Below are positions 2,551 through 64,000 of a DNA stretch of 64,000 bases, piece by piece. This DNA is from a virus. Lineage: Duplodnaviria; Caudoviricetes. The stretch's first letter is position 1. Every line of letters begins with the position of its first letter. The DNA lies in the IMG/VR virus record IMGVR_UViG_3300011008_000004, positions 150,258-214,257 of that record; one strand, written 5' to 3'. The translations under genes were made by a program, and so were the position numbers. The notes beneath the pieces are model-generated. The model searched no databases. It saw only the letters and a program-made list of their open reading frames with translations, and was not told the origin of the DNA.

Positions 2551-4569
2551 TTATAAAACGATAATACCTTGAGATAAATACGCTCTATTCCAATCTTCTT
2601 CACTTATCTCTTCTTTTTCTTGAGCAATGCTATTATACTAACCCATTGTTCTCTGTAGTTCTTCTTCGAATTGTCTATTCATCTCAGCGACCTAAGATGA
2701 TTGACTTGCAGAAGAACTTACTTGTTTAATAATATCAAGTGTCTCACCGTAATCAAATGCATATTGCTCTGCAAATTTGCTAGCTGTGAATACTGATCCA
2801 CATACTGCGTCGAGTACGTCCTTGTGTCCATTTGCAGGGTGATCTACTTTACCACTATTTATATTTCTTTCAATCTAAACAAATTCATCAAATAATCGTT
2901 CAGATTTATACATTACAAATCTTTTCTCATACACAGAAGATTGTAAATACTAATATGGTTTGCATATATGATCACTATCAACTCTATCAACTGATAGAAT
3001 TTCACAATCAAAACCTTCTGCTATTAGTTGTTGTCCAGTGTCATAAGATTGGAATGTATCGTATGTAATTTTCTTTATCTTAAATCCGACATTTTTAAGC
3101 CATCTTATAAAATTTCTATTCTTTTCAAATGAAATCTATCGGCCTTTAGGTGCTTTTATACTTGTACTAAAAGCTAATCTAAAACTTAAATCTCTTGCCT
3201 ATTGATTTGGATCTGTACTAACTTTTTTACCTATTATCCAAGTTCCAGCAATACCAGTCATATCCCCACTTACTGACATATCTAAATGAATAAATAAAGG
3301 TTTACTCATTAGTTCTTTTGGAATATTCTGCATGTCAAAATAGTTATAATACTAATCAACATCTTCAGAACCATTACCCGTTTCTATTATGTCTGGAAAT
3401 GGGTTTTTAAAGTCAGGATTTATAGCTTCTGTAACTCTTTCAGCTGACATGTACTTATTAACAGATGCACTTGATATACCAGCGTAATCGCATAGCATTC
3501 TCTCTAAGTCTTCTAACGCTTTTGCTTTAAAATCTATAGGAGCTGCTATTACTCTATAACCTTTATCTTTATAGAATTGTATATCAGCATCATTAGGTAT
3601 AACCAAACTTGCCTTATACTTATCACCTACGCCAATATAAAATATTTCATTACTATATGTGCCTTTAGGTTTAACTTCCCAAACAGGTTTATCTACAACT
3701 AAAGTATTACTGCCTTCTGTTTCCTATAATGTTTTTATATACTCTTCCATAAATGATTGCTCACTACGTTTAGAAGAAGCAACACATAACATTGTAGGAT
3801 TTTTACCCTCATGAACGAATCTGGTTAACATGCCGCCTATAGCTGTATCAATCATATTCTTTGCTTTTTCTTTCTGTTTATCTATATCTTGATTTCTAAT
3901 AAAGCTGATTTCATCAAAAAATGCAAAAAATACAGGTTTACCAATTACATCGTCTGCTTGAGATCCAATAACTATATTTATTGGATCAGGAGGAACCCAG
4001 TAAGGTTGATTATTTCTCTAAGTTATACTTCCTTTTGACATAAACCAAGGAGACATCTATATTGTTTTCTAAAACTTACTAATAGCGATCTCTTCTGATA
4101 GCGCTAATTTAATATTCATAAAAGCAAATATTATTTTTTCAGTAAGTTTTATATGATAATAAGATAATGGATCTTTTAAACACATTAAACGATACATTAA
4201 ATATGTGCCTACTGCACCACAAGCCACTTCAGATTTGCCAATACCACGAGCGCCAGACTCAAGTAATGTGTTATAATCAGTATCTATATTATTAGGAAAT
4301 AATTTCTTTAATATATCTAACCAAAAAGGATACAACTTTAATTTGCCACTAGCATCTTTCCAAGCTTTTCCTAAGAATCTATCATCTGTTAGAAATGTTT
4401 CTATGTCTACAGGGATTTCTTTAAAGTCGTCATAAAGTAAATCATCAAAAGTCTATGACTAACCTTTATCTGACATCTCTCCTAAAATCTACATAACCAT
4501 AGATTTTTCTTGTTCAGATAAATCATTTAAGTTATTTAATTGTGATATATCTAGTTCATTCGACATCAT
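2551..4569 (-). CDS. terL: Terminase large subunit (TAG-recoded)
   Basis: One frame interrupted by TAGs; Walker A GARGIGKS, Walker B FAFFDE, RNase H-like nuclease motifs FIHLDMSVSGD and HKDVLDAV. Confidence 0.9.
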
Positions 4570-4587: not shown

Positions 4588-6027
4588 TTAATTTAGTAGT
4601 TTCCCAGATGAGTAATATCTATTTATCTTATCTAGTACCTCATCAGATGTGTAATCATTATAGTTGTACGTTTTATATTCACCATTTGTTTCAGTATGAA
4701 TTAATACTGTTTGTTTATTTGAGAACACAAAATCTAACCAAGTTAACAACGAGTATAATTGAGTTACAGAAGGTTTATGTTTAGGTAAAACTATGTATGG
4801 ACTTATCCAAGAATCTTTACCGCCTCTGCTTCTAACTCTTATGCAATTTAATTTAACTTCTAAAAATTGACTGCCATCAGCAAAATCTAAATCTTGATTT
4901 TTAATATACTTCTTTTTCATTAAGTATTTATCTATATCTAAGTGATTGTTTGATTTTAAAAATTCACCTGTAGGTAAAATATAGTATCCACCATAAGCTG
5001 GTTTATTTGTTACCTCAAAATTATTTTCTAAATCTTGTAAAATAGTTTCATCATCTACTTCGCTTGATAAATCAATCTCATTATAGTAGCTTTCTTTTAA
5101 TATCAAATCATCTGGATATTTTATGTCATTTACATTTTGAACAATTAAAACAGGCTATGGTTTATCATACCCACACAATTCACCTGCAACAATCATTCTA
5201 TGACGGCCTTCTTGACCATCGTCATTATAATTTAAAAAACAAATAGGAAATTTTCTATGATATCTAATTATTACATCTCTTAAATGTTCTATAATATTTT
5301 CATCATTTTTAGTTTGCTATATTTGTTTTTCTCTAGTGCTATTAAATAATTTAGCACATTCATCAAAGTACTAGTTAGGCGTCATCATTATGATAGAACC
5401 AATAACACCTTTTCTATCTCTCATATATTTAGCATCATGTAATATATCATCATAATAGCTTACGCCTGTTTTGTTTTTGTCAAATATGTCGCATGACTCC
5501 ACATTAGAAGCTGAAGTACCATAATCATAAAATTTCTACTCACTATCTAAATAAGCTTCATTTTGTGGGACTTTATTTGTTTTAAAATAATACTTTAAAT
5601 CTTCAATAATAGATTTAATTGAAATATGTTCATAATCCCAAAAATCTATTTGATAACCATTTTTATCTGAAATTTGAATTGAAAAATATTGTCTATTGTA
5701 ACCTAACTGTTTTATAACATTTAAAAGTGTATTATATTGAGCATTTGTAGGTTCTAATATCAGTTCGATACCCGGTATTTCTGGCGATAATCTAATATTA
5801 CCTTTATTCATAAATGCTAATAAACTTTCAGGACCTTTGTAGTATAATTCACCATCAAAAGCATCGCATATGGATCTATGATCTATTATACGTCTATTTT
5901 GACCACCTGAAAAATCTAACAAAGAGCCATTAATCGTTATAAAAGCTGCTTTATTAGCATTAGCAGTAGTTCCAAATATTTTTATAGCATTCTATTCTAT
6001 ATTTTCATTCAAATGTATTAATTTCAT
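4588..6027 (-). CDS. Multidomain putative head-packaged protein with a ParB-like QEGRHR segment and a C-terminal domain paralogous to part of 49829..51901
   Basis: Track ORFs 5536..5922 and 4588..5106 are one frame across TAGs; starts MKLIHLNEN. Confidence 0.65.
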
Positions 6028-12878: not shown

Positions 12879-12976
12879 TGGCTGGGGTGGAGCGATTCGA
12901 ACGCTCACATCACGCTTCAAAGGCGCGCTTCCTACGATTTTAGAGATCGCTTTCTTACCAATTAGAATACACCCCA
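12879..12976 (-). tRNA. Gln-type amber suppressor tRNA (anticodon CUA) carrying a second complete anticodon arm (UUG)
   Basis: TGGGGTG TA TTCT AATTGGTA [AGAA A GCGAT CTCTAAA ATCGT A][GGAA G CGCGC CTTTGAA GCGTG A] TGT GAGCG TTCGAAT CGCTC CACCCCA G CCA; U1-A72 and G73 as in tRNA-Gln; encoded CCA. Confidence 0.9.
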
Positions 12977-56416: not shown

Positions 56417-56830
56417 TCACTTCTGATCAGCTTTTATACATCTTTGTCTTAAATTTGTTGAAGATTCATTATGTGGTCTAGGAATAATAACTACTTCAAT
56501 TCCCTTTTCTTTTTCATAATCATCGCCAGTGTAGCCACCTTTATGATCTGCGCCAATAAATCTTATATTATAATTAGTAGTTTGCAATAGTAGCAATAAA
56601 TCTTTTTCTCCAACATATGGTATAACTTTATCTATGTATTTGCAACTATCTAATCGAGTAAATCTTTCATACACTGATTCTATAGGTTTATTTTTATTTG
56701 GATTATCTATAGTTGGATCACAATTCATTGCGGCTATAAGATAATCACATTTACTTTTAGCGTATTCTAACGCTTTAATATGACCAGTGTGTAAAAGATC
56801 GCCAACCATTGGAAATATTCCTATTTTCAT
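56417..56830 (-). CDS. HIGH-family cytidylyl/adenylyltransferase (TagD-like)
   Basis: DLLHTGH, GAD and SST motifs. Confidence 0.8.
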   Translation of the reverse strand: MKIGIFPMVGDLLHTGHIKALEYAKSKCDYLIAAMNCDPTIDNPNKNKPIESVYERFTRLDSCKYIDKVIPYVGEKDLLLLLQTTNYNIRFIGADHKGGYTGDDYEKEKGIEVVIIPRPHNESSTNLRQRCIKADQK

Positions 56831-56842
56831 TTAGTCTCCTAT

Positions 56843-57619
56843 TTAGAATGTCTCATCTTCTATTGTATAAGGCATTCTGCATTTGTGGTATGACAATTTA
56901 TGCATTGCTTCAATTCTATCTATTTTATCTTCAGACAAATTATTAAATAATGGATCATTTATATATTCATCTAATTCATCATATGTAAATCCAAAATTAT
57001 CCTCATCTGTCTTCCCTGTTAAGCCATCACCTGGAGCTTTAACAATAAACTTTTCATCTAATCCAAATTCTTTAGCAAGCTCTGTTCCTATTTCTACTAC
57101 TTCAGACTTAGTCAGATGGGCGATAGGGTTAAGATCGCAACCAAGATCACCAAATTTAGTGCACCAACCTAAATACTTTTCACTAGCGTTGCCAGTTCCA
57201 ATAACTCTATAACCGTAAGTTTGAGCTATCGCATACAATATGGCCATTCTGATTCTAGGTGCTATATTAGTCTTGGATTTTTCGGTAATTTTAAGATCAG
57301 TATTTTTAGCGAATCCGCACCAACCTTCAGGTGTTTCCAAAGCATTAATAACCCCATTAAAAGCACTTTCAATATTAACTATTCGCCAATCTACCTGTAA
57401 ATCATTTGCAATCTTTAGAGAATCTTGAATATCTGCTTGCTCCCCATTAGGCATTAGAATTGCAAATACATTTCTGCCCCAAACTTTCTTAGCGAGCATT
57501 GCAACTACAGTTGAATCCTTACCTCCTGAAAGTCCTAATACTACGCCGTGACAATTAGCTTCTTCTTTATATTTTTCAAGCCAGTCTATAATTCTATTTA
57601 TTTTATTTTGTGTTGTCAT
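56843..57619 (-). CDS. nadE: NH3-dependent NAD+ synthetase
   Basis: GLSGGKDS, NIAPRIRM, GTGNASE, TKFGD; no glutaminase domain. Confidence 0.92.
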   Translation of the reverse strand: MTTQNKINRIIDWLEKYKEEANCHGVVLGLSGGKDSTVVAMLAKKVWGRNVFAILMPNGEQADIQDSLKIANDLQVDWRIVNIESAFNGVINALETPEGWCGFAKNTDLKITEKSKTNIAPRIRMAILYAIAQTYGYRVIGTGNASEKYLGWCTKFGDLGCDLNPIAHLTKSEVVEIGTELAKEFGLDEKFIVKAPGDGLTGKTDEDNFGFTYDELDEYINDPLFNNLSEDKIDRIEAMHKLSYHKCRMPYTIEDETF

Positions 57620-58005
57620 AAAGATTCTATAAAACTCCTTACCTTATCAAATTCTGGACTATAAGGAATAGCCATCACCATCATAGGTCCAGAAGGTGTA
57701 TTATACACTCTTGTGTAATCTTTTAAAATTTCTTTTATATTTACGCATTCTTGACGATCGTAATCTTCAGGTTCACCACAAAAATGTTCTATAGATTCCC
57801 CGCAATTAACGGTTAAATCTCTGCCTACATATGCTGATTTATTGTTTTCAGTATCAGTTAAAAATACAGCATTAAAATAATTTTCTGACGCAAAGTAATT
57901 ACGTATAAATTGCACTAAATCCTTAAAATCATCTGTTTCATGCATTATAGGCATGTCTAATTGCGATTGATCGAATTCTGCGTATGATTGAACTTGGAAT
58001 CTCAT
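57616..58005 (-). CDS. Hypothetical protein inside the NAD operon
   Basis: Overlaps both neighbours (translational coupling). Confidence 0.55.
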   Translation of the reverse strand: MRFQVQSYAEFDQSQLDMPIMHETDDFKDLVQFIRNYFASENYFNAVFLTDTENNKSAYVGRDLTVNCGESIEHFCGEPEDYDRQECVNIKEILKDYTRVYNTPSGPMMVMAIPYSPEFDKVRSFIESL

Positions 58006-59501
58006 TAAAATTCACCTTCCCAAAGTGTGTTTCTAATTTCAGCTAATGAATATTCTTTAATCATCTTACCGTCTTTGAATACAACTTCTAATTGATTGTT
58101 TTTGTCATTAGATGCTTCATTGAAAGATAAACCATCTCTATATGCTAATCTACCATCAACAGCATCTTTCCAAACTACTATACAACCTTTATTAGATTTC
58201 TTAAACGCCATTTCTTTAGGATTTTTAAAGATAGGGATTTCCTTACCATCTTTAGTTTCACAATAAGTTGCTTTAATTGCGAAATTCATAGTATCTCTTG
58301 TGAATGGGTTTAACTTAATAAAACCTGGTTCAATCTCTTGCTCAAATGCTTGCATTGAGAAACTTCCAACACCTAAAGATACATTATTAGCCGCAAATCC
58401 ATTTTCTTCTAAAATTTTATAGATTTTTTCGGCTCTTCTCATTGTGATAGAATCACCATAAATCGCTTTAACATGTTTATCTAAAACTTTATAGCCTTTG
58501 CTGTTGATTGTTCCGCCAAAAATATCCCATAAATGAAAAACAGTTTCAGTTACAATTGTTACAGGATCGCCACTATCACCTCTAACTGAGAAGCAACCAT
58601 TATGATTCATAATTTCTTCTTTACATTGAGGTAAGATATTGTCCACAAGATTCCAATAATCATAACTATCAGAAACCATTGTAAAAGAGTTATTAGGATA
58701 TATTTCAGTAAGAAGTCTCTTTATCATAGTAATTTCGTCACCATCTACCGCGAAATTAGAGCACATTACTGAATGTTCAGTTGAAGGTGCGCCAAATCCA
58801 ACTTCTTCTTTTTCACAATCACAGTTATAGTATTTTTCTAAATAAGAAACGGCAGGTACTGTTGCGGTATTTACAAAAGATAACAACCAAGCTGCAGAAG
58901 ATTTAGTTGCAGATCTCATAGATTCTTGACCACGCATTGCGAAATCTCCAAGAGCTCTTCTATGAGGAACATTATCATCAACAGTCTTATTAAACCACTT
59001 ATCTACAATTTTTCTATATTCTACGCCTACATTCGCAGAAACCATTGCGTGCCACATTTCACAGGAAATAACAGACTCTAATGCATTAGTTAACCAAGCA
59101 AAATCTGGATGTGTGTTAGAAATTTCAAACATAGGAACTTTAAGAGGAACCTTAGTACCTTCTTTAATTGCTTTAATTTCAATAGGTAAATAACCTAAAG
59201 CATGTAAAGCTTCAATCCTCTCGATCCCATATAAGCCTTCACCTAAAGTGTTATCCATAACATGTCTATATTCTTTCACAATATCAACTAAAGGTCTATT
59301 AAAGAAATAGTCATTAAAGTCATCTATTAAAAATTCTTTAATAAAACCTTGAAGACCAAACATAACTACATCATTCCAACCTTCAATTCTTGTTCCACGA
59401 GGAATCCAATAACTTACAACTTTACTTACGTTTTTAGGATATTGATTCCAATGTACTTGTTTGTAAAAATCACTTTCTAATAATGGATTTATATTAAACA
59501 T
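58005..59501 (-). CDS. Nampt/NadV-fold nicotinate/nicotinamide phosphoribosyl (or ADP-ribosyl) transferase
   Basis: SDFYK, DFAMRG, STEHS, VSDSYD, RGDSGDP, YGDSI. Confidence 0.9.
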   Translation of the reverse strand: MFNINPLLESDFYKQVHWNQYPKNVSKVVSYWIPRGTRIEGWNDVVMFGLQGFIKEFLIDDFNDYFFNRPLVDIVKEYRHVMDNTLGEGLYGIERIEALHALGYLPIEIKAIKEGTKVPLKVPMFEISNTHPDFAWLTNALESVISCEMWHAMVSANVGVEYRKIVDKWFNKTVDDNVPHRRALGDFAMRGQESMRSATKSSAAWLLSFVNTATVPAVSYLEKYYNCDCEKEEVGFGAPSTEHSVMCSNFAVDGDEITMIKRLLTEIYPNNSFTMVSDSYDYWNLVDNILPQCKEEIMNHNGCFSVRGDSGDPVTIVTETVFHLWDIFGGTINSKGYKVLDKHVKAIYGDSITMRRAEKIYKILEENGFAANNVSLGVGSFSMQAFEQEIEPGFIKLNPFTRDTMNFAIKATYCETKDGKEIPIFKNPKEMAFKKSNKGCIVVWKDAVDGRLAYRDGLSFNEASNDKNNQLEVVFKDGKMIKEYSLAEIRNTLWEGEF

Positions 59502-59502
59502 T

Positions 59503-59715
59503 TTACACCTCTCTAAATTTTTTTATAATTATAAGTCTACTATTTTCAACATACTCTGGTTGATAACCTTCATAGTCTTGTCTATCTAAGTCTAAGATAC
59601 TGTCTGTTGTATAAACGTGGTCTATATACTTAAATACATCACCTTTAAATATATTACTCTCACAGTGAGAAACTAATAAGTCTATTTGTTCTACACCTTT
59701 TTCTTTGAGAGCTTT
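59503..59715 (-). pseudogene. Displaced original 3' end of the prs-like gene
   Basis: KALKEKGVEQIDLLVSHCESNIFKGDVFKYIDHVYTTDSILDL...*, near-identical to the current prs tail; contains the RBS of the next gene. Confidence 0.85.
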
Positions 59716-60799
59716 ATTTAAGTTTTAAAATTTTATCAAATTCATTTTCATCTGTAAGTATTAGTGTGTTATTTTTTAACATACACGCATATTTTGCAGA
59801 TAGTTTAAGTTTATCTTTTATAATCTGCTCTTCAGTCAATTTTGAAACATATGGGTTTCTTAAACCTATTATTTCATTATTTTCATTATATTCTAATAAA
59901 TGTTTACCTTTACATTCGCATAAAACGCCATTGACTATAAAATCAGGAAAATAAAAATAATTTTTATTATTTGCACTGTATACTATTTTTATCGGTTTTA
60001 TTTCTATATCTAAATTATTTTCTAAACAAAATAAATAAAATTTTAATTCTAACTGGCTATCAAATGATATGCCGTTATAAATAGTTACAGTATGATGCTT
60101 TTTCGCAGCTTCTTCTGACTGCGCATAGCTTCTTACACCATAATGATTTAACATCGTCTCTGCTATTTTCTCAGGATTACACCAATTTTCATCTCCATAT
60201 CTTAGTAACTTCGTCTGTTTAATCTTTTCTTTTATAGTCTCTGATTGGTATACATTTTCAACGCCATACTTATCTAAGTTATTTATTCGCAAAGTTTCTT
60301 TTCTACGTTTTTCCGCATCAACTGTATGGCCATTCTTTTTGCATTTTTCTAACTGAGTAGCAGCTTCAACACCATATTTAATCAACATTGTTTGACGTAT
60401 TTTATCTTTTACAATTTTAGATTGATTAGGGCTTTCAGTGCCATATTTTTGCAAGCAAGTTTTTTTAGTTTTTTCATTTCGACGCTGTTTAGTTTCTTTT
60501 GAATCAAATGTGTGCCTATTAATCTCTTTTTGACATTCTCGCTGCCCTGGATTTATGACACCATACCTTTCTAGGTAAACTTGCTGCTTCAATTTATTTA
60601 TGCAATCTTTTGACCCGCATGTTCTGTCATAGTTTGGGCTATGAAAGGCTTTTTCTTTACCACAAAATGGACATATATTATCTAATTTTAAATACTGATC
60701 AGTATAGCTCTTTCTATCGATATTGTGATCTTTTTTTAAATGTATAGTTAAAAGTCTCTCATTAGTTAATTGCTTCTTACAAATTTTACATTCTACCAT
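59714..60799 (-). CDS. Putative homing endonuclease (Zn finger, KYGVEN repeats, PD-(D/E)xK domain)
   Basis: CKIC..H..H; repeated (K/R)YG; FDSQLE...YFPDF...ECKG. Confidence 0.75.
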   Translation of the reverse strand: MVECKICKKQLTNERLLTIHLKKDHNIDRKSYTDQYLKLDNICPFCGKEKAFHSPNYDRTCGSKDCINKLKQQVYLERYGVINPGQRECQKEINRHTFDSKETKQRRNEKTKKTCLQKYGTESPNQSKIVKDKIRQTMLIKYGVEAATQLEKCKKNGHTVDAEKRRKETLRINNLDKYGVENVYQSETIKEKIKQTKLLRYGDENWCNPEKIAETMLNHYGVRSYAQSEEAAKKHHTVTIYNGISFDSQLELKFYLFCLENNLDIEIKPIKIVYSANNKNYFYFPDFIVNGVLCECKGKHLLEYNENNEIIGLRNPYVSKLTEEQIIKDKLKLSAKYACMLKNNTLILTDENEFDKILKLK

Positions 60800-60886
60800 T
60801 ATATAATAGCTCCTTACTTTATAGTTCTCATGTAATTTAGCTATTCATATAGCACCAAATGTAATAATATCATCAGAATTTAATAT

Positions 60887-61702
60887 TTAATCATACTTTC
60901 TAAATTCTTTTATAACAATTAACTTATTTTTATTTTTTAAATATACTTCATTTTCCTGAGAATCTAACTGTTTTAAATCTAAAATACTATCGGTTGTGTA
61001 TACATGATCTATGCAATCAAAAGCTTCTCCTCTAAAAATGTTATGTTCACAATGGGATATTAGTAGATCTACTTGTTCCACACCGTGCTCTTTTAAAATC
61101 TTAGCAGCTGCTACATGTGTACCAGCATAAGAACAGATATCGTCTATCAGTAATACTTTCTTAGTTCCTTCTTTAAAGTTCATAAGTTCATAATCAGTAA
61201 TTCTACCTTCAGCATTTCTATGTTTATTGCCAATAATACAGTCGCTATTAGCATTATACTTTTTAGCAGCACCATTATCTGGATACATTAAAACTACATC
61301 AAAAGGAATTTGCATGGAGTCTTTTAAGTAAGGATACACTCTTATGCGATCTATAAGCGCTGTAGATACATCTGAATGCGGGTCTAATACTCTTACTTCA
61401 ATAAAATTCATTTCATTTATAAGTTTTGCGAAATATTTAAGAGTAAAGAATCTATTACTTACATTTCTATCTTGACGGGCATGAGGAATATATGGCATAA
61501 TTAACAATATACTAGAATGTTGTCCACACATATCTCTTATTTGATTTACTAAAGTCCATAACGTAAATAATTCAGCATCATTATCATAACACCAAGTTAT
61601 TTCATGCGTAAATCTTTCTTCTATGTCTTCTGGAACCGCCATTTTTAAAGTTCCATCACCAAATTTTTCTTGTTTAATCTCTTTTTCATTGTAAAGTATC
61701 AT
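60887..61702 (-). CDS. Ribose-phosphate pyrophosphokinase-like protein (Prs/Adps-like)
   Basis: PYIPHARQDR, LDPHS, YPDNGA, IDDICSYAGT. Confidence 0.88.
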   Translation of the reverse strand: MILYNEKEIKQEKFGDGTLKMAVPEDIEERFTHEITWCYDNDAELFTLWTLVNQIRDMCGQHSSILLIMPYIPHARQDRNVSNRFFTLKYFAKLINEMNFIEVRVLDPHSDVSTALIDRIRVYPYLKDSMQIPFDVVLMYPDNGAAKKYNANSDCIIGNKHRNAEGRITDYELMNFKEGTKKVLLIDDICSYAGTHVAAAKILKEHGVEQVDLLISHCEHNIFRGEAFDCIDHVYTTDSILDLKQLDSQENEVYLKNKNKLIVIKEFRKYD

Positions 61703-62241
61703 TATAACACCTCTATTTGACAGCTTCTCATAACTTCTAGAGCTGCTTCATGGTTTTCAGGAGTTACACCTGCGCAACATTTAGAATCTACTTTTATAAT
61801 CGCTTCAGGATATAAAGCTTTAAGAATAAGCGCATTAGATACAACGCATATATCTGTACATAATCCTATTAATTCTATTTCTAAATTTTTTGTAGAAAGC
61901 TTTAAGTCATTAAATACATTTTTCCAATCAGTGTAACCAAAACTTTCTTTACTTAAACAGTAATACTCACTTATACCATCTAACGCTTGAATTAGTTCTG
62001 GTTTAATATTGTACCCGTCTGTTCCAACTATACAATGCTTTATAGGTAAATGTTTGCCTTCATTCGTTTCAAGATAGTTATCATAATGTGTATCTTGCGT
62101 AAATAATATTACATCTTTATTTAAGCCATATTCTCTAATTTTAACCCATGCAGGTAAGAGAATGTTCTGTGCTTCTTTAGAACCTAAACTTCCATCTATA
62201 AAGTCATTTTGCATGTCTACCACTATAAGTATTTTATTCAT
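61702..62241 (-). CDS. pncA: Nicotinamidase
   Basis: VDMQNDF, DTH, HC, GLCTDICV; NAD operon context. Confidence 0.85.
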   Translation of the reverse strand: MNKILIVVDMQNDFIDGSLGSKEAQNILLPAWVKIREYGLNKDVILFTQDTHYDNYLETNEGKHLPIKHCIVGTDGYNIKPELIQALDGISEYYCLSKESFGYTDWKNVFNDLKLSTKNLEIELIGLCTDICVVSNALILKALYPEAIIKVDSKCCAGVTPENHEAALEVMRSCQIEVL

Positions 62242-62259: not shown

Positions 62260-62280
62260 TTGTAATCTTTTTGATTACAA
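62260..62280. promoter_or_regulatory. 21-bp palindromic operator (putative NrtR site) upstream of pncA
   Basis: TTGTAATC-N5-GATTACAA between the TTGTATA motif and the RBS. Confidence 0.75.
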
Positions 62281-62295
62281 TTATTTATACAATAT

Positions 62296-63003
62296 TTATT
62301 TTATTCTGTTATGTTTAATTCTATAAAGTTTACTAGGTCTTTTAGAATATCTATTGGATGTACCTCTAGCTTCTTCTATTAATCCACTATCAATATATTT
62401 TTTGATGTAGTCTCTTTTAAAATTCATTCTAACTAATGGCTTATCTAAAATTGCTTCATAAATTTTTTGTACTTCACCAATAGTGAAAGCTTCATAGTTA
62501 TTTATTAAATTAAATCCAATAGTTGTGTAACTTAATTTACCTTGAATTCTTTTAACGGCATGTTTTATTATTGTTTTGTGATCGAAAGCTAATATGTAGT
62601 TACTATCTATGACGTCTTTAACATTTAATAAATACGATTCATCATTTAATTTTTCTCTTAATAAATCAATAGGAACTAGAGCAAAATACACTACATCTAT
62701 TACTCTTGTTCTTGGATCTCTATCTATATCACCAAAAGTAAATAACTGCTCTAGATACATATCTTGAAGCCCTGTCTTTCTCTCTAAGACACCTATAGCG
62801 TTATTTAATAAAGTTTTATTAAGATCTAAAAATCCGCCAGGAAGAGACAATAAACCTTCAAAAGGTTGTTCGTTTCTATTATATAATAAAACCTTAAGTA
62901 AATTATTTTCAACTGTGAATATAACTACGTCAGTAGTTACAGATGGTCTTTCATATTTATTTACATCATAATTGTCTAAAAACTCTTTATCTGATTTCTT
63001 CAC
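62296..63003 (-). CDS. nrtR: NrtR-like regulator (degenerate Nudix plus winged HTH)
   Basis: YERPSVTTDVVIF, LEQLFTFG..DRDPRTRVI, LAFDH, FTIGEVQKIYEAIL...RPSKLY; Nudix-box glutamates lost. Confidence 0.85.
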   Translation of the reverse strand: MKKSDKEFLDNYDVNKYERPSVTTDVVIFTVENNLLKVLLYNRNEQPFEGLLSLPGGFLDLNKTLLNNAIGVLERKTGLQDMYLEQLFTFGDIDRDPRTRVIDVVYFALVPIDLLREKLNDESYLLNVKDVIDSNYILAFDHKTIIKHAVKRIQGKLSYTTIGFNLINNYEAFTIGEVQKIYEAILDKPLVRMNFKRDYIKKYIDSGLIEEARGTSNRYSKRPSKLYRIKHNRIK

Positions 63004-63039
63004 TACTAATCTCCTTAACTTATATAGTTTAGCTTGTAT

Positions 63040-63060
63040 TTGTAATCATTTTGATTACAA
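63040..63060. promoter_or_regulatory. 21-bp palindromic operator upstream of nrtR
   Basis: TTGTAATC-N5-GATTACAA, arms identical to 62260-62280. Confidence 0.75.
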
Positions 63061-63082
63061 TCTTTATTTTATATACAAATAT

Positions 63083-63130
63083 ATTATAACAAAACGCAAA
63101 AAAGAAGTCAACTAAATTGTTGACTTCTTT
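63083..63130 (-). promoter_or_regulatory. Terminator/-35 composite (TTGACT-17-TATAAT) driving nrtR
   Basis: AAAGAAGTCAAC/GTTGACTTCTTT stem. Confidence 0.8.
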
Positions 63131-63151: not shown

Positions 63152-64000
63152 TTACTTTACCTTTTCATTTAATACTTTAGTCTTATTGAGTTTTGCTTTT
63201 TCTTCTGCTAAGATAGTTTCATATCTCGCTTCATAACGAGCTTTTAATCTCATACGTTTTTCAAGATTCTTCTTTTTCTTAGCTTGAAGTCTTGCAGCCT
63301 CTTCAATAGCTTTTTCTTTAGCAAGTTTTTCGGCTTTTTCTCTATCGTTTTGAGCTTTAATAACTCGTTTAATATCGCTCTTAAAACCTTTACCGCATAC
63401 CTTTTTAAGAATACACTTTTCAATGCCAATTTCTAAGTCAAATTCGTCACCTGCAGTACACTTCACTGAATACTGTGTATTATCATTGAAATAGACTGTG
63501 ACAATCTTATTATTTTCATCTACAATATATTTCTTAATAGTTGGAATTGACTTCTTTAGTTGAACACTAAAACTAAAACCTTCACAAGTATTTTCACCCA
63601 TATTACTTAAACCATCCTTTTGTGTTGATATATTAACACCATTTATTTTTACCTTTGATATTTTATTTAAATCTTCTGTTGTAAGATACGTCGAAATTAC
63701 ATTTGCATCTGAATTCATCTTTGTACTAAACGTATCTTTTAAATAATTACGATTTACTATATCATCGCATGTTACACATCTTTTGCGTCTAACATCTCCT
63801 GCTATATCTAATTCAAATAGTTTAGATGAATTATATATGTCTTCTCTTAATTTCTTTACATAAGGTATCGAAATCGAATCAGTTGCTACGAATGTAATCT
63901 TTGAACACTGCGTAGAATATAATTCTGTAAATGAATTCTTCATATAGATATCTGATTTAATAACTTCTAATTCTAGTATCGGCGCTGATTCAAATGGCGA
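63152..64000 (-). CDS. Conserved phage hypothetical protein (frame open to the window edge)
   Basis: VTVYFND..SVKC..GDEFDLEIG motif plus coiled-coil tail. Confidence 0.55.
   Translation of the reverse strand, partial: SPFESAPILELEVIKSDIYMKNSFTELYSTQCSKITFVATDSISIPYVKKLREDIYNSSKLFELDIAGDVRRKRCVTCDDIVNRNYLKDTFSTKMNSDANVISTYLTTEDLNKISKVKINGVNISTQKDGLSNMGENTCEGFSFSVQLKKSIPTIKKYIVDENNKIVTVYFNDNTQYSVKCTAGDEFDLEIGIEKCILKKVCGKGFKSDIKRVIKAQNDREKAEKLAKEKAIEEAARLQAKKKKNLEKRMRLKARYEARYETILAEEKAKLNKTKVLNEKVK

Follow-up and report, generated by a model that had tools for sequence, protein, structure and literature searches.

A phage-borne NrtR-like repressor gene and two variant NrtR-type operators at a candidate NAD-rebuilding operon

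The phage NAD-rebuilding pathways NARP1-3 have been described as sets of enzymes without a dedicated regulator, and we found no paper on a phage-encoded NrtR or on a regulated NARP pathway; the NARP3 paper mentions NrtR solely as background, and the NARP1 preprint carries the remark that ADP-ribose regulates transcription in some bacteria (10.1101/2024.02.11.579819). The locus analyzed here raises the question of whether a phage might keep genes of this kind under a repressor of its own and, if so, which signal would release them. A preliminary description of this DNA had proposed that the phage encodes an ADP-ribose sensor acting on two operators, by which it would detect the destruction of host NAD and induce NAD rebuilding on demand.

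The genome is a virus record of 214,257 bp (29.7% GC), and the window, i.e., the whole stretch of DNA analyzed, is its final 64 kb. Of the long open reading frames, the minus strand carries 163 and the plus strand 4. The run labels (horse, faeces, viral metagenomes) point to a gut phage; the contigs of four runs cover the operator region, the RNA run being available as contigs only and hence giving no evidence of transcription. The genes of interest all lie on the minus strand, in the order nrtR, pncA, adps-like, homing endonuclease, namat-like, 129-aa ORF, and nadE:

62296..63003, minus strand: nrtR, Nudix-like sensor plus NrtR winged helix, 235 aa, GTG start (Pfam)
61702..62241, minus strand: pncA-like gene of the isochorismatase family, nicotinamidase candidate (PF00857, 1.5e-17)
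60887..61702, minus strand: Adps-like homologue of PRPP synthetase, 271 aa (SPbetaL1 similarity)
59714..60799, minus strand: homing endonuclease in the old adps 3' end (PHROGs and Pfam)
59502..59713, minus strand: non-initiated stretch derived from the former Adps C-terminus (aligns locally with the tail of today's Adps, score 209)
58005..59501, minus strand: Namat-like enzyme of the Nampt family, 498 aa (PDB 9W5X/9W5W, SPbetaL1 Namat)
57616..58005, minus strand: 129-aa protein (no match in Pfam, PHROGs, or NCBIfam)
56843..57619, minus strand: nadE, NAD synthetase (PF02540, 2.4e-56)
56417..56830, minus strand: 137-aa RfaE-domain-II/TagD-like nucleotidyltransferase, 12 nt after nadE, possibly the last gene of the operon

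No GenBank phage matched the locus in a megablast, and a single-protein scan of IMG/VR was equally without result.

The first gene had been described as NrtR-like with a degenerate Nudix box, and both statements agree with what we found. Indeed, Pfam recognizes the NrtR winged helix (NrtR_WHD, PF21906, 46.1 bits, cut-off 27) and the Nudix domain (PF00293, 24.2 bits, cut-off 21.1); the best solved relative is the Shewanella oneidensis NrtR (SoNrtR, 3GZ5/3GZ6; 3GZ5 with an E value of 1.1e-28 over residues 5-229), and the AF2 model (80 homologues, pLDDT 93.6), which displays a helix at 192-204 and a two-strand wing, superposes on both structures and fits best the DNA-bound SoNrtR 3GZ6_A (TM 0.78/0.83, rmsd 2.2 A). 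With 159.9 bits against the NCBIfam model NF050029 (ADPR-responsive repressor), under the equivalog cut-off of 400, the protein is, by its score, a homologue and not an equivalog of that clade. The Nudix box had been quoted correctly: of the five charged signature residues, none remains (E63K, R71G, E72V, E75R, and E76K), whereas they are kept in 58-74 of the 80 homologues, and the box is predicted to be catalytically dead.

The ADP-ribose contacts of SoNrtR, Tyr10, Phe15, Arg41, and Arg98 (PMC4666351), align, once a 3-residue tag offset is allowed for, to Y12, Y17, R43, and R98 of the phage protein. These positions are conserved in 78-80 of the 80 homologues, position 17 being aromatic in 79 of them. 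Since the contacts are kept, Arg98 included, the pocket looks like the nucleotide-binding pocket of an NrtR and supports ADP-ribose as the likely ligand; ADP-ribose is known to release NrtR from DNA in Synechocystis, Shewanella, S. suis, and M. smegmatis (PMC2330246, PMC6800001). However, the fold does not dictate the effector, given that the NrtR family includes an arabinose sensor, and this sensor (Bacteroides AraR) is nearly as close in sequence to the phage protein as SoNrtR is. [quoted passage not shown] The effector of the phage protein might, on this model, be NAD acting as a co-repressor, or else ADPR-PP or cyclic ADPR isomers, and not free ADP-ribose. We regard this as improbable, given that the four named contacts are all kept, including the Arg98 that AraR has lost (it is Gly in the arabinose sensor; PMC4666351).

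If the protein is a repressor, where might it bind? Two palindromes and the promoter elements that accompany them are relevant here:

63040..63060: operator O1, TTGTAATC-ATTTT-GATTACAA (= TTGTAATCATTTTGATTACAA), 37 nt before the nrtR GTG
62260..62280: operator O2, TTGTAATC-TTTTT-GATTACAA (= TTGTAATCTTTTTGATTACAA), 19 nt before the pncA ATG
63083..63111, minus strand: sigma-70-type nrtR promoter, TTGACT-17-TGtTATAAT, with an extended -10 (11/12 to consensus)
63067..63078, minus strand: conserved -10-like box TTGTATATAAAA before O1 (from the alignment of the regions upstream of O1, O2, and the operator of the related locus L161)
62283..62292, minus strand: conserved -10-like box TTGTATAAAT before O2, putative pncA promoter (same alignment)

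The identical-armed, 21-bp palindromes that had been reported are both present, one before nrtR and one before pncA, and both are perfect 8-N5-8 palindromes. The genome-wide search for further sites that had been suggested was run over all 214,257 bp and returned exactly these two perfect occurrences of TTGTAATC-N5-GATTACAA, no site with one mismatch, one with two mismatches, and five with three; the chance expectation, estimated from the GC content and the genome size, is ~4e-4 perfect sites. The pair thus lies far outside the background, the next-best site having two mismatches. The core does depart, as had been pointed out, from the GT-N7-AC form, reading AT-N7-AT in both O1 and O2; the GT-N7-AC core is common to most but not all NrtR lineages, the Mycobacterium and Streptococcus sites being deviating examples (PMC6800001).

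The position of the palindromes just after promoter motifs also stands, the sigma-70 promoter preceding O1 and a -10-like box preceding O1 and O2 alike. O1 would span ~+17 to +37 relative to the sigma-70 promoter of nrtR, the -35 of which sits in the descending arm of the terminator hairpin of the upstream gene (63101-63130). Of promoters of such quality, the coding strand has 39 and the opposite strand 9, with ~12 per strand in shuffles, a threefold enrichment of sigma-70-type promoters on the coding strand. O2 is located within the 54-nt nrtR-pncA spacer, 3 nt after its -10-like box, and the pncA-like gene, which adjoins nrtR in many relatives, is the first behind it. A TTGTATA(T)AA box stands directly before each operator, with a box-operator spacing that is identical in O2 and L161 and on account of which the operator would cover the transcription start. 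The putative pncA promoter consists of the -10-like box with a weak -35, and the stretch from 63100 to 56500 contains no terminator-like site. To judge from their form and their placement at the nrtR and pncA promoters, O1 and O2 are sites of the type that the NrtR of this phage would be expected to recognize.

It might be argued that the palindromes are instead 5'-leader RNA hairpins, or sites of another host or phage protein. Each of them could form an 8-bp RNA stem of ~-7 kcal/mol, and the leader segments containing it have a z of ~-2.2. However, the stems are weak, without a U-tract, and no better than 2-4% of shuffles; in relatives whose flanking sequences differ, nrtR is accompanied by a site of the same architecture, and the exact motif, with no nrtR nearby among the matches listed, is not a common element. 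We consider this explanation very improbable. Scans for the exact motif returned 26 IMG/VR stretches and at least 120 stretches in species genomes, with no nrtR nearby among the matches listed (26 viral and 80 genome stretches); these matches were treated as chance and not as NrtR sites, and they are uninformative on the host's own NrtR sites.

A metagenome scan with an alignment of the phage-clade NrtR yielded 67 loci, and the conservation of operator plus nrtR, which had been named as a check, was looked for among the relatives: palindromes of the same geometry do precede homologous nrtR genes. In six loci (L163, L164, L169, L171, L221, and L222), the NrtR of which is 40-45% identical to that of the phage, ATAGTC-N5-GACTAT palindromes occur 57-101 nt before nrtR, and the palindromes of several relatives overlap TTGACA and TATAAT hexamers. 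Across NrtRs of 40-56% identity, the shared site form is TA[G/A]TC-N5-GA[C/T]TA. The 21-bp geometry with a GT-N7-AC core is the classical one of NrtR operators (PMC2330246), and the phage operator shares with the sites of the relatives the 21-bp frame and positions T4-A5, T7-C8, G14-A15, and T17-A18, with an A in place of the core G (TAATC-N5-GATTA). The protein is tied to its site by the fact that homologous NrtRs have a canonical palindrome at the same position, and the phage palindrome clearly appears to be a variant NrtR-type operator. Sites with three mismatches in relatives were rejected as operators, lying as they do inside nrtR, where they encode the conserved segment Y-N-A-D-D-Y-K.

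The closest relative among the loci compared is L161, a 1.7-kb contig with an NrtR 56% identical to that of the phage; it stands in for the nearest NrtR relatives (P0003-P0006, 44-56% identity, on 229-252-kb contigs), which were left out of the operator comparison. Its operator, ATGTAGTCAAGATGATTACAA, lies 48 nt before nrtR and combines one canonical half with one phage-type half, so that the GT core is found in one half only; 14 of the 16 operator positions are kept, and the same nrtR-pncA-adps order follows downstream. In L161, nrtR and pncA overlap (ATGA) and the nrtR-pncA spacer is absent, which suggests that O2 and its -10-like box are an addition in the lineage of the window; the added operator and box may give the enzyme genes a putative controlled promoter of their own.

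The recognition helix of the phage NrtR reads NFKR, NFRR being the form in 60 of the 80 homologues; at the third position of this motif, Lys is found in the phage protein alone (R in 60, Y in 19). This change, a single event, may accompany the G-to-A change of the operator, and the two forms, TAATC with NFKR and TAGTC with NFRR, make a natural pair for the study of NrtR DNA specificity.

What, then, would be controlled? The Adps-like protein falls under the canonical Prs cut-offs (87.5 of 113 bits in NCBIfam, borderline in Pfam) and shares 35% identity, across 94% of its length, with the 272-aa product of the gene that immediately precedes Namat in Bacillus phage SPbetaL1. The Namat-like protein matches 9W5X/9W5W with 4e-121, versus ~1e-50 to NAMPT. 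[quoted passage not shown] In NARP1, ADPR and ATP are converted to ADPR-PP, which with nicotinamide yields NAD+. The homing endonuclease cassette is absent from related contigs, and the Adps remnant is, as its alignment indicates, what the insertion of the endonuclease left behind; since the endonuclease is an insertion, the adjacency of adps and namat would be ancestral. The genes under control look like PncA, NadE, and an Adps/Namat pair of the NARP1 kind, and not like generic salvage. However, whereas NARP1 is described as a two-gene unit without a regulator, the phage operon has a dedicated repressor, PncA, and NadE; moreover, the Namat-like enzyme keeps R40 and F392 of the selectivity clamp (R40, F392, and Y396 in Namat) as well as the catalytic R306 but differs from the SPbetaL1 Namat in reading NTAT for GTDT (the nicotinamide-selecting Asp being replaced by Ala) and in having Ala at the position of Y396, with an insert of 14 aa behind it in the clamp helix. 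Its substrates may differ from those of Namat, and the presence of PncA and NadE in the operon makes a deamidating variant of NARP1 possible.

The same five genes are found outside phages. The uncultured bacterial contig L172 (PDWI01001491.1) has the order nrtR-pncA-adps-namat-nadE of the phage, a Namat-like enzyme (60% identical to that of the phage) that likewise has NTAT and the insert, and an operator, ATGGTC-N5-GACTAT, located in its promoter between TTGACA and TATAAT (TTGACA-17-TATAAT); its flanks (an H-NOX chemoreceptor, seryl-tRNA synthetase, and ThyX) represent a bacterial chromosome context. Unlike the phage, L172 has a single operator, which retains the core G, and lacks the homing endonuclease, the 129-aa ORF, and the second operator. 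The common order, enzyme variant, and operator suggest that the phage and bacterial operons have a common origin, regulator and operator included, and acquisition by the phage is the favoured direction of transfer.

The likeness to bacterial NrtR regulons (Rodionov et al.) extends further, since these too comprise a repressor made of a Nudix domain and a winged helix, 21-bp palindromes at or just after promoters, sites before nrtR and pncA, and salvage targets that include a prs-type and a nadV-type gene; clostridial layouts include #nrtR-pncA-#pncB-nadD-nadE and #nrtR; #pncA-pncB (PMC2330246). The differences are the 214-kb phage carrier, the AT-N7-AT core instead of GT-N7-AC, the NFKR motif, targets resembling Adps/Namat and not Prs/NadV, and a phage-specific promoter-like motif after O1. 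The predicted switch is a phage-borne form, with a variant operator, of a type of bacterial regulon already known; apparently, this known bacterial switch was imported whole. Through the phage operon, the bacterial regulons of 2008 in which NrtR governs prs-nadV would be connected with the Adps/Namat chemistry of 2024.

Since a bacterial chromosome, that of L172, carries this operon behind an NrtR operator, the phage may have received the regulation merely as a companion of the genes. Accordingly, the operon might have been taken ready-made from a Firmicutes-type bacterium, with NrtR keeping a housekeeping role that has no specific link to anti-phage NADases and that matches NAD salvage to its turnover in infection (e.g., for an NAD-dependent ligase or redox needs). 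The identical five-gene order of L172, with its operator in the promoter and its bacterial flanks, the clostridial nrtR-pncA layouts (PMC2330246), and the NTAT and insert common to the two Namat-like enzymes all fit this idea. On the other hand, a regulated operon of 5 kb has been retained and recurs in several jumbo phages, which suggests selection, and Adps and Namat are counter-defence enzymes proven experimentally in other phages (10.1101/2024.02.11.579819, PMC12774641). We hold a purely housekeeping role to be possible but rather unlikely, bearing in mind that the housekeeping and defence readings overlap mechanistically.

As for the other phages, the cultured jumbo Bacillus phage G (NC_023719, gp273-gp283) has an NrtR homologue 34% identical to ours, annotated as MutT/NUDIX and followed by isochorismatase, NAPRT-family, NMNAT-type, and NadE genes; it differs from the phage operon in its enzyme set, which is without Adps. 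Homologues of NrtR are also present in a 636-kb uncultured phage and in seven IMG/VR contigs, six of which measure 158-513 kb (11-513 kb overall). In six phage loci, corresponding to five distinct phages (L006 and L010 being the same element), nrtR lies beside Nampt-family genes. No TAnTC-N5-GAnTA operator was found near gp273, and no convincing palindrome was seen beside nrtR in either Bacillus phage G or seven IMG/VR jumbo-phage loci.

On the whole, we consider it reasonably probable that NrtR, bound at O1 and O2, holds an NAD-rebuilding operon that is released by ADP-ribose. According to this model, host RNA polymerase would start at the sigma-70 promoter and at the -10-like boxes beside the operators; NrtR dimers on O1 would autoregulate nrtR by roadblock or by occlusion of the start site, and NrtR on O2 would cover the start of the pncA promoter and stop read-through. 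ADP-ribose arising from NAD cleavage would bind the dead Nudix domain and free the DNA of repressor, so that NAD rebuilding stays on during NAD breakdown. Adps would then convert ADP-ribose to ADPR-PP, from which the Namat-like enzyme would produce NAD or its deamido form, NadE finishing the synthesis; as the targets are Adps/Namat-like, ADP-ribose would be inducer and substrate alike. A new infection starts without NrtR, and the operon would therefore fire first and then be shut off by feedback unless ADP-ribose persists. Thus, we infer that the "induced on demand" of the preliminary description should rather be understood as "shut off unless ADP-ribose persists", the system not being a pure off-to-on switch; it would probably limit NAD rebuilding to times of NAD destruction. 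The suggestion that the operon enters the cell first was discarded, the 99-bp terminal repeat being too short to argue so.

Against the circuit stand the lack of a GT-N7-AC core, the NF050029 score (160 of 400 bits), the weak pncA promoter, the use of NAD by NdnR, the fact that the L172 operon is bacterial, and promoter-like motifs, described below, from which transcription could escape NrtR. Induction by ADP-ribose, the link to defence, and the insulation from the host NrtR are steps that we infer from the analysis as a whole. If they are true, some phages would gauge whether the NAD-depleting immunity of the host has fired and adjust their counter-measure.

A more elaborate scheme, a substrate-gated counter-defence circuit, can also be envisaged. 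In it, the ADP-ribose released by host NADases would serve both as inducer, via NrtR, and as feedstock, via the Adps of a deamidating NARP1 variant; the G-to-A change of the operator (positions 6 and 16) and the Arg-to-Lys change of NFRR would have drifted together, ending cross-talk with the host NrtR; and a promoter of the phage-polymerase type beside O1 would retune the supply of repressor late in infection. That all these parts hold jointly seems to us doubtful.

The last of these parts concerns one more element of the region:

63025..63033, minus strand: GCTAAACTA, one-mismatch variant of GCTAAATTA, between O1 (6 nt before it) and the nrtR start (~30 nt after it)

The preliminary description had placed a late-type motif here, downstream of the nrtR operator, and a promoter-like motif is indeed present, reading GCTAAACTA on the minus strand; that it would bypass the operator is uncertain, since O1 ends 6 nt before it and NrtR may occlude the motif, not be bypassed by it. 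GCTAAATTA is a phage-specific promoter-like motif with 30 copies on the coding strand and none on the other, usually placed 30-60 nt before a start codon, and the variant found before nrtR has just one other copy in the genome. In L161, GCTAAAATA likewise lies 6 nt behind the operator, and in the phage genome GCTAAAATA shows a 7:1 strand bias; for these two reasons, the GCTAAACTA motif is plausibly functional, as a putative promoter. The homing endonuclease has a GCTAAATTA box of its own at 60841-60833. Transcription independent of NrtR could start from the motif behind O1 and from the one ahead of the endonuclease, the latter (60841) being a candidate start of this kind for namat-nadE. Several of the genes behind GCTAAATTA contain an in-frame TAG, and a tRNA with the anticodon CUA is encoded at 12879-12976.

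Within the NAD operon, the adps gene, which codes for the Prs-like enzyme of the NARP1-like pair, has been interrupted by a homing endonuclease gene:

59714-60799, minus strand, homing endonuclease, lying inside the former adps gene (affected stretch 59502-60886)

Indeed, the apparently "intergenic" sequence at 59502-59713 encodes a copy of the Adps C-terminus of about 70 amino acids that lacks an initiation codon, and this remnant aligns with the present Adps tail (60887-61140) with a local alignment score of 209. Moreover, contigs from three public runs carry a cassette-free junction, in which 59715 is joined directly to 61137/61140. Elsewhere in the genome, too, a gene has had its tail replaced in this manner.

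The partner enzyme, the Namat-like protein of the Nampt family (58005-59501), shares with its counterpart in the bacterial contig PDWI01001491.1 (4725-6194 of locus L172) both the replacement of GTDT by NTAT and an insert after SFSMQ. The two enzymes represent one subtype, separate from the Namat of the Bacillus phage SPbetaL1, and differ from the ordinary Nampt adjoining nrtR in other jumbo phages. At the downstream end of the operon, a further gene may be its final one:

56417-56830, 12 nt 3' of nadE, 137-aa RfaE-domain-II/TagD-like nucleotidyltransferase with an HxGH motif

As for other nrtR loci, the metagenomic locus L171 (5925-12651) has a perfect operator, AAATAGTC-ATTTT-GACTATTT, upstream of nrtR, which is followed by genes for Adps-like, Nudix, NAPRT, microbial PARG, NadE and PncA proteins, so that an ADP-ribose-removing enzyme falls within the same NrtR operon. 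The 9-mer CAAAATGAT occurs just 5' of nrtR in the phage studied here, in Bacillus phage G and in the faecal phage fragment MT836087 (63044-63052 in the window, approximately 5947-5955 and 3826-3834 in the nrtR loci L004 and L005, respectively), and its palindrome register differs among the three phages.

Across the whole genome, the coding strand carries 30 copies of the motif GCTAAATTA and the opposite strand none. The copies usually lie 30-60 nt upstream of a start codon (in the window, for example, at 60841, 52481, 36070, 33305, 18914 and 14273), and the motif is probably a promoter for a transcription system specific to the phage. An in-frame TAG is present in many of the genes downstream of the motif, this codon is read through in several long ORFs, and the NAD operon genes are free of it. 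The window also encodes a suppressor tRNA:

12879-12976, amber suppressor tRNA, anticodon CUA (labelled Pyl by ARAGORN)

Lastly, since the terminal repeat spans just 99 bp (63902-64000), the virus record may represent a circular assembly overlap rather than a true direct terminal repeat.
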